Shown: positions 9,363 to 61,790 of the stretch, one piece after another
Numbering within the stretch: position 1 is the first letter of the stretch
Layout of the letters: the number at the start of each line of letters is the position of its first letter
From: Eledone cirrhosa
Lineage: Eukaryota
Assembly (NCBI GenBank): GCA_964016885.1
Contig: OZ024743.1
Span: forward strand, 223,138,001-223,202,000
Direction of reading: 5' to 3'
Length of the DNA stretch: 64,000 nt
Translations under genes and position numbers: made by a program
The notes under the pieces: generated by a model
Told to the model about the DNA's origin: nothing
The model's input: the letters and a program-made list of their open reading frames with translations, nothing else
The model's database searches: none

Positions 9363-9423
9363 TATTTTATCTGAAGAAAGCACCAAAGTGTTTTGGTACC
9401 CTTGAAATATATATAATAAAATG
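9363..9423 (+). ncRNA. type I hammerhead ribozyme (family B)
   Basis: Stem I uauuuuau/auaaaaug; CUGAAGA at 9371; stem II with accaaa-gugu-uuuggu; GAAA; palindromic stem III AUAUAUAU; AUA site, predicted cut after 9415. Confidence 0.7.
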
Positions 9424-9553
9424 AATATGGTTTTATAAATATAGTTTCCATTTATTTAATATCAATGTATGTATATATATATATATATATATATATATAT
9501 ATATATATACATTGATATTAAATAAATGGAAACTATATTTATAAAACCATATT

Positions 9554-9614
9554 TATTTTATTATATATATTTCAAGGGTACCAACATTTTGGTACGCTAT
9601 CATCAGATAAAATA
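9554..9614 (-). ncRNA. type I hammerhead ribozyme (family B)
   Basis: Minus strand reads uauuuuau CUGAUGA u agcguaccaa aaug uugguacccu u GAA AUAUAUAU A auaaaaua; perfect 8-bp stem I. Confidence 0.8.
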
Positions 9615-10074
9615 CAAAATGTTTTATAAATATTTGACATAACCAAGGATAATATACCTTACCACCAAATTGAATATCCCTTCTGCTTATATATAAATAT
9701 ATATGTATATATATATACAGGGTGCAGACAATATTTGTTCGCAAGATTACTGTCTAGGAAAAAATAATGTCAAATATTTATAAAACATTTTGATGATAGC
9801 GTACCAAAATGTTGGTACCCTTGAAATATATATAATAAAATAAATATGGTTTTATAAATATAGTTTCCATTTATTTAATATCAATATATGTATATATATA
9901 TATATATATATATATATATATATATATATATATATATATATATACATTGATATTAAATAAATGGAAACTATATTTATAAAACCATATTTATTCTATTATA
10001 TATATTTCAATATTTCAATAATATACCTTACCACCAAATTGAATATCCCTTCTGCTTATATATAAATATATATA

Positions 10075-10943
10075 TAGGGTGCGGACGATATTTGTTCGCA
10101 AGATTACTGTCTAGGGAAAAATAACACAGTAGTTTTATTTTTTAAGATATATTTATCAAACTTGGGTCAGTTTGTCTTCATGACTTGTTCTTTCGATCTC
10201 ACTCGATAAACCCGCCATTGGCTTTGATGACGGCCTCGGAACCGGCTACAGGCCTTCGTCACTGTCCCCCGACTTAGGCCCCTAAAAGCACTTGTGATCC
10301 TGGCCTTCAGATCGTCTTTCGTATTGCAGCTAGATCTGCTGGTGTCTCGTTCCACTGCGCCCCACACAAAGAAGTCAACGGGGTTGCAGTCTGGCGAGCT
10401 GGCAGGCCAGATGTCAGGTGAAGTGTGGTTGACGAAGTTCTCTGACAGCCAGGCTTGGGTCTTTTGGCTGGTATGGCAGGGCGCTGAGTTTTGCTGCCAC
10501 ATGTACAGCCTACCTGCAGCTACCTGGTCGATCCAGGGCTTTACTATCTCGCTCAGAACACAGATGTAGCCATCGGTGTTCAGCTTGAGGCCCTCAGGGA
10601 AGAAGTGAGGTAGCATGACGTCACCTTGACTGCTGACGACACCTAAGACCAATGTTGTCGCTAGAAACTTTGTCTGCACGTCTTTGGATGAGACACCATT
10701 CTCCTGCTGACGCTAAGAAAGTCTGAAATTTCCTTATTTGTCCTCCCGGCGCGGATTCCAAGAAGAACTCCGTGTCTCTTCCACAAATTTGGAGGTTCCA
10801 AATTATTCATAATCAATTATTCTGAAAATAAATAATGGAAATATAGTCACTGTTTTTATGAAGACAAGAGTGACAAAGGAAGTAAAAAAAATTTGCATAA
10901 AATTAGCAGTTGAAAATTGCGAACAAATATCGTCCTCACCCTG
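10075..10943 (-). mobile_element. maT/DD37D Tc1-mariner element, internally deleted
   Basis: TIRs (t/c)agggtgcggacgatatttgttcgcaa / ttgcgaacaaatatcgtcctcaccctg in TA context. ORF 10167-10679 has WQQNSAPCH...WPASSPDCNPVDF (37-residue spacing; D2 mutated to N). Confidence 0.85.
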
Positions 10944-10962
10944 TATATATATATATATATAT

Positions 10963-59447: not shown

Positions 59448-59732
59448 CTAGAGAAACAAATAAAACAAGGAAAAATATTGAATATATATATATATATTTA
59501 TAATAGATGTATAAGATTAGTTTTTACATGCTGACTTGTGTGTGTGTCTGTGTGTGTGCTTCTATATTTTCAGGGAAGCATGTGATGAGGGTGCAATACA
59601 TCCCTCTGTGTACTTACAAATATTTATATAGTATGTGTACTTACATACATGTATTTCAGACATTTCCGTAATATCTCTTATATTGTATTATATATGGAAT
59701 TTAGCTACTGGTCAAACAAACAATATTATTAC

Positions 59733-59854
59733 CTGAAGATATGTCCCATAAATTGCATGTCTTGTCCATAGATCCGGAGACAACCAAAGAAGAGTCCCAG
59801 TTAAATTGGCAGCTGCTAACTTCAGCTTTGTGTCCAATCAACTTGTGGATACGT
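59733..59854 (-). CDS. DAW1: DAW1 exon: [40 protein letters not shown]
   Basis: 122 nt, AG/GT borders, phase 2 to 1. Confidence 0.95.
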
Positions 59855-60076
59855 CTAGTGAAAACAGCAATATCGATAGTTAGACATAGGTATAAATAGG
59901 GAAACAGACAAAAAGATAAGGTGACTAACAGAGAGATAGACAATTAACCCTTCTGTGATCGTATTTCTAATGAAATACATATTATTTCAATTAATTAATG
60001 AAGAATTTTGAGGGATGTGCTAAAATTACTATTTCATTACTAAGATAGTAATTTAACATATGGTTCTTATATAAAA

Positions 60077-61404
60077 TTATTTTAGAAGATTTCTATTTAC
60101 ATAAAAGCAGAGCTGATGTTGGTTGGTATCAAGAGTTAAATGGAAAGGTAAATCAGCAGACAGATATGTACACTCTATCAGTGCATGTCGTAAGAGCTGA
60201 AAATGAACATTACCTGAAAATGGATCCAATGCATGTAGCATGGCTCAATGATTAAGAAGTTCGCTTCACAAACATTAGGTCATGGGTTTAATCCCACTGT
60301 GTGGCATCTTGCACAAGTGTCATTTATCATAGCTTCAGATCAACCCATGCCTTGTGAGTGAACCTGAGTAGATAGAAACTGTTTGGAAGTTAGGATGGAA
60401 TGTATCTCTTATAATCCATAGGGTCAGCCTTGTTTCACACTGTGACATGCTGAATTATCATCACACACACACCCCACGCCACCGCCTAGGAAGATGGTGG
60501 CGTGGGGGGGGGGGGGGGGGTGATGATGATGATAATTCAGCATGTCACAGTGTGAAACAAGGCTGACCCTATGGATTATAAGAGATACATTCCATCCTAA
60601 CTTCCAAACAGTTTCTATCTACTCAGGTTCACTCACAAGGCATGGGTTGATCTGAAGCTATGATAAATGACACTTGTGCAAGATGCCACACAGTGGGATT
60701 AAACCCATGACCTAATGTTTGTGAAGCAAACTTCTTAATCATTCAGCCATGCTACATGTGTAGTGACCTACATTCCGCGGGCTCACATACATTCTCTGTG
60801 CATGATTTGGCTCAGCTCAGCCAATCAGCGCCAGTAGAAGAGAATGTATCCCTACGCGCCCTGAGCGAGAAATTCCCTGCGAGGATTTGAAGAATCATCC
60901 TCTCGCATCCTGAACTTCGAAGGAACAACACGTACAACATGTAACGGTGAGATTTTGGCCTGCCGGCCTGCCTCGGGCCTGGCACAATGGCACATTCCTT
61001 TTGTAACCTTTTTTAGGTTGAACTACAATCATATCATTTAACAAAACATTACTTTGTGCCACAACAAATAAACATACTTTTCATCTCACAAACATTCTTC
61101 TTGTTGACGTTATCAAGTTACTCGTTTGTCGATGTGACCAACACTTCTTTCTACCAAACTGATTACTCGTGGCGTTATAACAATTACATTATTTCCTCTA
61201 ACAACTTTATTACTACATTAAAACACCCTTATCATCTGCTAAACATTCATTGGATCCATTTTCAGGTAATGTTCATTTTCAGCTCTTACGACATGCACTG
61301 ATAGAGTGTACATATCTGTCTGCTGATTTACCTTCCCATTTAACTCTCTTGATACCAACCAACATCAGCTCTGCTTTTATGTAAATAGAAATCTTTAAAA
61401 TAAT
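60077..61404. repeat. long intronic palindrome (inverted duplication) containing a tRNA-derived SINE
   Basis: 60232-60460 pairs with 60530-60758 and 60077-60230 pairs with 61248-61404; central hairpin ccccacgccacc/ggtggcgtgggg. Confidence 0.9.
60759..61217 (+). mobile_element. putative solo LTR inserted in the palindrome's right arm
   Basis: Ends TGTAGT...ACTACA; internal ccaat and aataaa; CpG-rich; no clean TSD seen. Confidence 0.55.
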
Positions 61405-61414
61405 CAGTTGTAAT

Positions 61415-61790
61415 AAAATGAAAACGAAATTTCATTTCTCACTCTTCATAAGGAAAGTATATACTTTCGAACGTTCAACTATCTGGCAGATGGGTATACG
61501 GTGCTGATGATAGCTAACAAGCTTGAAACTAGTACATCGTTCCTGTGTCAGTGTTGAACAAAAAGGTGACGTGGTTGCCTTAACACCGTATGGCATAAAT
61601 TCAGGCTGTTCAGTTTGTTTACAAACGAACAAAGCGGGCGCTATAATAAGCGTCCGCTAAACTGATACGTACATATATGTATGTGTACCTGTATGTATAT
61701 ATATATATATATATATATATATATATATGCATGCTACTGTACGTCTGTATACATATATGTATGTACGTATACATACATACTTACATTTAA
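61415..61790 (+). mobile_element. solo, rearranged copy of the family-A hammerhead unit
   Basis: 61447-61789 is the reverse complement of the array unit; 61415-61446 is the unit's other end in the opposite orientation. Confidence 0.85.
61497..61541 (+). ncRNA. type I hammerhead (family A), solo copy, antisense to DAW1
   Basis: acggug CUGAUGA uagcuaacaagcuu GAA ACUAGU A caucgu. Confidence 0.78.

Follow-up and report, generated by a model that had tools for sequence, protein, structure and literature searches.

What do the hammerhead ribozyme motifs in a 64-kb stretch of the Eledone cirrhosa genome (contig OZ024743.1, positions 223,138,001 to 223,202,000; in the following the window, with its first letter as position 1) reveal about the base pair that closes stem II? 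An initial annotation had assigned these motifs to four families (A to D) and had proposed that a recurrent U·U at positions 10.1/11.1, where a Watson-Crick pair is expected, represents a lineage-specific variant that standard descriptors could miss. The hammerhead motifs are real and ride on retroelements; the variability of a normally fixed pair is the less ordinary point, and U·U, which leads several mispairs in frequency, probably does not define a separate type of ribozyme.

Type I hammerheads in the window

The window was scanned with a descriptor for the type I order (stem I, CUGANGA, stem II, GAA, palindromic A..U, H17, stem I), and motifs at or above the score threshold were counted. 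It contains 14 intact type I motifs, and every site of the initial annotation was found at the place given there. Among 50 dinucleotide shuffles of the window, 48 contained no motif and 2 contained one, which is far from the similar rate in shuffled sequence that the annotation had considered. The core (C3 U4 G5 A6 N7 G8 A9, G12 A13 A14, A15.1-U16.1, and H17) is complete in 13 of the 14 motifs, the sole exception being family D, which carries C instead of U at position 4 (U4C); thus, the type I order is kept throughout, as claimed, but the core is not. Stem I measures 4-8 bp in all motifs. Clustering by flanking sequence placed families A, B (palindrome AUAUAUAU), C, and D in four separate clusters, again as claimed, but two more families (22148-22207 and 22348-22417) had been overlooked. 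U·U at 10.1/11.1, followed by a paired helix, was seen at each of the places reported, that is, in A, in the B motif at 9554, and in D.

U·U as a family state

The possibility that U·U is decay only, also raised in the initial annotation, was not borne out. When the exact family A pattern was searched in the genome with 10.1/11.1 left free, 25,369 of the 26,739 matches were U·U (reversed control, 0), and aligned copies, a set biased to close copies, carried U·U in 84 of 89 cases for family A and in 32 of 33 for family D. Close copies of family C are mostly A·C (26 of 32), so that the A-U copy of the window is an exception, and family B is mixed at 10.1/11.1, its other window copies being A·C or A-U. 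Families A to D are all non-canonical at this pair in at least one subfamily, and U·U is a family state, not decay.

The core exchange of family D is likewise shared, U4C being present in 33 of 33 close copies; among the first 100 listed of 837 D-like matches, a hand count gave U4C in 59 and U10.1 in 92. Apart from the D motif of the window (57789-57903), U4C cores were observed in at least two other families (L098:1958 and 1467; L107:2823). Family A pieces were also searched in contigs of four sequencing runs. One run, which may be the source sample, yielded 2,419 pieces, with no 10.1/11.1 variant above 3%; two runs yielded no piece, and the fourth a single contig of low depth. When sequencing runs were searched for family A, no RNA run was among the matches listed.

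The 10.1/11.1 pair across the genome

Pattern searches with 10.1/11.1 left free or fixed covered the genome of 3.0 Gb. Loose patterns accepting any pair gave 386,778 matches (control 68,328), those requiring U·U 97,773 (control 3,047), and those requiring G-C 40,334 (control 2,450); by these counts, which include repeats of one site, U·U is ∼2.4 times as frequent as G-C. In addition, 119 evenly placed 10-kb stretches (1.19 Mb) were subjected to a structure-checked scan, which detected 161 motifs, compared with 0 in the reversed sequence at equal threshold. The pair occurred in 12 states: A-U 49, G-C 35, U·U 32, C·A 14, G·U 8, U-A 7, A·A 5, A·G 4, A·C 3, U·C 2, C-G 1, and C·U 1. In 61 of the 161 motifs, the position expected to hold a Watson-Crick pair, usually G-C, is mispaired; the canonical G10.1-C11.1 is a minority, and U·U is the commonest mispair. 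Palindromes measured 6-12 nt in 160 of the 161, and stem II inserts reached 120 nt.

Clustering of all loci gave 48 groups, from which three false ones (one 27-bp minisatellite and two low-complexity singletons) were removed, leaving 45 families. The modal state is a mispair in 23 of them (U·U in 12, which bears out its recurrence in many families, and another mispair in 11) and direct G-C in 8, although these shares are rough because some of the loci had been retrieved with U·U and N-C patterns. Sister families switch among U·U, A-U, U-A, C·A, C-G, and G-C.

Extrapolated from the sample, the genome would hold 403,000 motifs (bootstrap 295,000-526,000). Pattern rates are ∼1.2 times higher in the sample than in the genome, so that the estimate becomes about 300,000-400,000, in agreement with the high ribozyme density that had been proposed. 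By this measure, the motif density of the window is ordinary for the E. cirrhosa genome: resampling of the 119 stretches gave a mean of 8.7 motifs per 64 kb, with P = 0.16 for 14 or more, and P = 0.71 for four or more families per 60 kb.

Conservation of the RNA structure

The 46 distinct sequences with A-type geometry show changes on both sides in 11 of 15 pairs of stems I and II. Their covariation score, which is inflated by relatedness, is 0.339, compared with 0.113 when shuffled and at most 0.076 when the partners are slid. Three helices with an open stem I are thus backed by covariation. The 10.1/11.1 column of these sequences contains G-C 6, A-U 2, and U-A 1 times and is mispaired in 37. 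The perfect pairing at 10.2 and 10.3 is built into the descriptor and hence no evidence. Across the covarying stems of the family A type, the loop letters U-A-A-N-A are invariant.

A C·C mismatch at 10.4/11.4 was also observed; in 10 of 45 families, including B, it is the modal state, and it occurs in 41 of 145 copies (L118-L177, L238-L296, and other loci of the genome sample). It appears to be better conserved than the 10.1/11.1 pair, and a role as a tertiary or metal site is conceivable.

Carriers of the motifs

The family A array consists of units of 524-528 nt with an internal (TA)n and 0-2 differences per 120 nt between copies; elsewhere in the genome, unit lengths are about 420-550 bp. 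The unit folds far better than shuffles (z -12.75), partly owing to the (TA)n, and the array gave no match to a Penelope protein. Together with its likeness to known tandem units (see below), this suggests that family A is a retrozyme-like tandem element. The solo family A motif sits in a 5′-truncated unit; at the 5′ end of this copy (61407-61445) lies a short inverted piece of the unit's 3′ part, as is typical of Penelope-type insertion. Tandem arrays of A-type sister units (310 and 466 bp) were observed at two other places (G000:C1:5389017-5392669 and C1:5738327-5752443), one with more than 30 copies; the strand switches at a point, like in fold-back insertions. An endonuclease upstream of one A copy was rejected as a partner, as (TA)n lies in between and it is absent at other A loci; one neighboring frame of A and one of C may be there by chance.

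The family D motif forms the 3′ end of a Hydra-like Penelope element (about 57532-58039). Copies of D have a common 3′ and a variable 5′ end, and the longest extend to a broken GIY-YIG segment, for which a first look at the genome gave 40,713 candidates. A D-type motif follows this segment at 6 of 12 loci, and at 3 of 6 loci with long frames. The D-linked frames carry the CxCX5C, CxxC, and CxH motifs of the Hydra clade around a conserved E and N, and their look-alikes are reverse transcriptase (RT)/GIY-YIG proteins of cnidarians and molluscs (0.93-0.96). BLASTP against a Neptune-like frame and a search of solved structures gave nothing clear for the D-linked frame. The CxCX5C linker was seen for D only, whereas CxxC and CxH also occur in the endonuclease remnant near the B motif at 26620, which was found by a profile built from 49 related segments of the genome (E 3.3e-18). 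The inverted copy that holds the B motif at 28781 spans 540 bp and is 97% identical to 26571-27107. The family C element spans about 14172-14708.

A first look for GIY-YIG in the genome gave 10,596 candidates, and long frames of RT with C-terminal GIY-YIG have a CX4CxxC linker as in Neptune-type elements. In one Neptune-like family, the RT+GIY-YIG stop is followed after 380-417 nt by a U·U motif, within the shared 3′ region (7 matches at 6 loci, two overlapping). The own motif of another Neptune-like family has a U3-A8 core with G-C; A·G, U·U, and C·A hammerheads further downstream were rejected as belonging to it because they are neighbors beyond the shared 3′ region. U3-A8 cores were observed in one Neptune-like family and in others. 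At two loci (L105 and L111), ∼1.0-1.2 kb 3′ of the frame, a Neptune-like U3-A8 core was seen by eye to have GCA replacing GAA before the palindrome ACCGGU. The clade names Hydra and Neptune are applied to these putative carriers on the basis of protein motifs. Overall, motifs lie 0.4-1.5 kb behind RT/GIY-YIG reading frames, (TA)6 or longer follows within 400 nt 3′ of 128 of the 161 sampled motifs (background 25%), and the elements show 5′ truncation, inverted copies, and (TA)n targets.

Dimer folding and a proposed mechanism

For seven motifs, palindrome duplexes were calculated at -3.2 to -10.7 kcal/mol, compared with +0.4 to +6.0 kcal/mol for the monomer hairpins. For two of the seven (D and the motif at 22148), two copies folded into a double hammerhead with an intermolecular helix III. 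The reading that we favor, and consider probable, is that these are type I palindromic hammerheads on Penelope-like 3′ ends (B and D) and on a retrozyme-like unit (A), that they are predicted to cut themselves pairwise, and that U·U probably acts as a weak closing pair that is tolerated. By analogy with known systems, a tandem or read-through transcript would join two motifs, whose palindromes would pair as one intermolecular helix III. Cleavage of each motif after N17 would then release the unit (524-528 nt for A), which would be circularized, or serve directly as template for the Penelope RT and endonuclease, and be inserted into (TA)n. A dimer helix of 6-12 bp may hold the core together, leaving 10.1/11.1 to drift, and U·U would be favored because it does the least harm among mispairs. 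As in systems that have been tested, cleavage would be slow, would depend on dimers, and would take place during transcription.

Several observations weigh against this reading. The minimum-energy folds of two copies of A, B, and C are not double hammerheads, and in a two-unit A transcript at equilibrium, the probabilities are 0.02 for helix III, 0.06 for stem II, and less than 0.01 for stem I. The U4C exchange carried by D lowers activity in vitro (Perreault 2011, PMC3088659). Pfam recognized neither RT nor GIY-YIG in the D-linked frames, and the genome searches linked neither A nor C to a parent reading frame. No partner of the same family lies within 3 kb of 95 of the 161 sampled motifs, and a same-strand partner lies within that distance of only 25, which indicates that most motifs are relics. 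On the reading favored here, the huge count reflects the copy number of mostly dead, truncated insertions, not of working enzymes. Finally, 12 of 41 families have U·U as their modal state, compared with 7.3 expected if the two positions were independent, so that U·U may be preferred and not only tolerated.

A bolder version, to which we give a minor chance, would take the long, family-specific palindromes as a pairing code, whose strong dimer helix would free both 10.1/11.1 and U4, so that dozens of families would cleave efficiently despite cores regarded as crippled, each with its own kind only, making this the largest hammerhead load described.

Alternative explanations

That the motifs are chance matches or decayed relics without selection on RNA structure is most improbable. 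Most copies are indeed solo and truncated, the core of D is changed, and no Rfam family reaches its gathering score; however, this explanation has to contend with the 0-1 motifs in shuffles, the 0 compared with 161 in reversed sequence, the fixation of U·U within families, and the two-sided changes in stems I and II. A different concern is the register, as the two U's could be bulges, one following A9 and one preceding G12, with the helix beginning only at the next pair. The minimal hammerheads of Penelope elements typically have an extra base after A9, and the published minimal descriptor permits an extra base on both sides (Cervera and de la Pena 2014, PMC4209133). In sisters with an identical 14-nt stem II, however, the U·U column is G-C or A-U, and the alignment to Rfam HH9 puts the U·U of family A on the G10.1-C11.1 column. 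As a G-C sister has the loop, palindrome, and 5′ flank of family A (74-86% over 50-58 nt), the register is fixed, with U·U occupying the G-C position, and bulges are an improbable account.

The remaining alternatives accept the pair and differ in why it is not G-C. A specially selected, lineage-specific variant with a structural role of its own would fit the prevalence of U·U among mispairs in the sample, the families, and the genome-wide patterns, and its retention across the D clade while stem II shows compensating changes. It would not fit the 11 further families in which another mispair is modal, the sisters that switch states, or the published occurrence of U·U in axolotl and in the collection of Perreault 2011, and its legibility for Hydra and Drosophila willistoni; it is accordingly given little credence. 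Mutation pressure deserves more attention, although it is unlikely to be the main cause. C11.1-G12 is a CpG in the DNA, so that methylation-linked decay would turn C11.1 to U, followed by drift of 10.1. CpG observed/expected is 0.63 in the sample, CpG transitions exceed non-CpG transitions 1.7-2.9-fold among copies of A, C, and D, U11.1 is present in 90 of 161 motifs, and G·U is also present in several G-C families. On the other hand, A11.1 (26 of 161) and U10.1 (41 of 161) require transversions, and U4C has given the D subfamily an additional CpG (59 of the first 100 copies listed). CpG decay may therefore push 11.1 to U but leaves A11.1 and U10.1 unexplained; it is compatible, as a contributing cause, with the tolerated weak pair that we favor.

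Recovery by databases and descriptors

Rfam detected no hammerhead in the whole window at gathering score. With E up to 1, microsatellite-driven microRNA matches and a tRNA were the only ones among the 150 of 225 rows listed for the window, and the isolated A copy (61498..61540) scored 18.6 bits with HH9 (gathering score 52). The minimal descriptor of Cervera and de la Pena 2014 (PMC4209133), re-implemented for a recovery test, found 1 of the 161 sampled motifs, and 70 when longer palindromes were allowed. Thus, standard descriptors do miss these motifs, as had been suspected, but the cause lies in the longer palindromes and stem II inserts, not in U·U.

Relation to known hammerheads

The published work does not support a lineage-specific variant in the sense of the initial annotation. 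Perreault 2011 reported natural hammerheads with U10.1·U11.1 as rare exceptions, noted a viroid U4C variant, and cited U·U (from Ruffner 1990) as the most active mispair; the pipeline used there discarded any mispair at 10.1/11.1 (PMC3088659). In E. cirrhosa, in contrast, U·U has become fixed in families whose copy numbers run from thousands to tens of thousands, and C·A, A·C, A·G, and A·A families exist alongside. In axolotl, HHR_Amex2, which has U·U at the base of helix II, accounts for about 60,000 of 126,247 motifs and cleaves to 22% in one hour as a monomer and further as a dimer (Cervera and de la Pena 2020, PMC7229834). Family A resembles the HHR_Amex2 retrozymes in U·U, tandem non-coding units, self-paired RNA, and a long candidate target-site duplication (13 bp, where more than 4 bp is expected of retrozymes), and HHR_Amex1 in a one-pair stem with a palindromic tetraloop. 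It differs in its unit, which in the window is longer than the 150-450 bp of non-LTR (long terminal repeat) retrozymes and contains a (TA)n (PMC7229834). For these retrozymes, loop 1-loop 2 contacts and circular RNA are described; family A is known from its DNA sequence.

The Penelope hammerheads of Cervera and de la Pena 2014 (PMC4209133) are alike in type I order, palindromic helix III, a 3′ repeat behind the RT+GIY-YIG frame, and a U3-A8 core variant; there, too, a genome contains numerous families, whose copies are mostly single and truncated. Their consensus is G10.1-C11.1 with an extra base after A9, a register found in none of A to D and used by 4 of the 45 families here, and their genomes hold up to about 9,000 motifs. 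E. cirrhosa differs from them in its G-C minority, its palindromes of 6-12 nt, its long inserts, and its load. Two of the 56 rows of their Fig. S3 (Hydra magnipapillata and D. willistoni) can be read as U·U with a long palindrome, a reading from extracted figure text in which GAAA is displaced. The Hydra and Neptune clades of Craig 2021 (PMC8557442) are alike in C-terminal GIY-YIG, (TA)n targets, and inverted 5′-truncated copies, and in their linkers (Hydra, CxCX5C with CxxC and CxH, as in D and, for the latter two, in the B remnant; Neptune, CX4CxxC, as in the Neptune-like frames); their hammerheads are called canonical, unlike those described here.

The U·U variant is thus already known, whereas the scale and the G-C minority were not found in the literature searched, which also yielded no hammerhead census in cephalopod genomes. 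Lunse et al. reportedly described, in 2017, about 150,000 small Penelope hammerhead variants with a diminished stem III that cleave as dimers (summarized in PMC6765202), an overlap that may reduce the novelty of the present motifs further. In the consulted part of a 2026 octopus repeat annotation, the words ribozyme and hammerhead do not occur.

Features of the window

Table 1. Hammerhead motifs and associated features of the window.
Feature	Position	Strand	10.1/11.1	Palindrome	Remarks
Family A tandem array	30819..32967	-	U·U	ACUAGU	five type I motifs
Family A array, predicted cuts after A17	30826, 31354, 31878, 32406, 32930	-			
Family A solo motif	61498..61540	+	U 61511 and U 61524	ACUAGU	predicted cut after 61534
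Solo family A insertion	61394..61798	+			candidate 13-bp target-site duplication at 61394 and 61786 (one copy only)
Family B motif	9363..9423	+	A10.1-U11.1		
Family B motif	9554..9614	-	U·U		inverted partner of the 9363 motif across (TA)n
Family B copy	9791..9840	+			without stem I 5′ strand and without C3
Family B motif	26620..26685	-	A·C		1.45 kb 3′ of same-strand endonuclease remnant
Family B motif	28781..28846	+	A·C		within inverted 5′-truncated copy
Family C motif	14405..14515	+	A-U	ACUCGAGU	84-nt stem II insert
Family D motif	57789..57903	-	U·U	ACAAUUGU	core U4C; 82-nt insert
Further family	22148..22207	+	U10.1-A11.1	9 nt	
Further family	22348..22417	+	A10.1-U11.1		stem I as in B
Hydra-like GIY-YIG endonuclease	28109..28360	-			C-terminal remnant (CxxC, E, N, CxH)

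A 6-kb (AT)n tract (20200-26343), which contains two hammerhead elements, extends up to a 200-base assembly gap (26344-26543). The window begins with 62 copies of a 41-bp satellite (1-2552). Two frames of the long interspersed nuclear element type (11029-14056, +; 35540-37138, -) encode AP endonuclease and RT, with a PHD finger directly after the RT domain, and a tRNA-Leu(TAG)-like sequence (63325-63406, +) is either a gene or the head of a short interspersed nuclear element.

Significance

At about one motif per 8-10 kb, the estimated load of the E. cirrhosa genome exceeds the total for axolotl. Nearly all of these motifs escape Rfam as well as the published minimal descriptor, so that hammerheads may be greatly undercounted in other invertebrates. 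The 10.1/11.1 pair has been called the most conserved after A15.1-U16.1, and the census, with several hundred thousand motifs in at least 45 families, samples most of its states. The homologous sisters with U·U, G-C, A-U, and C·A constitute a natural panel for asking why this pair matters and how dimer formation offsets its loss.

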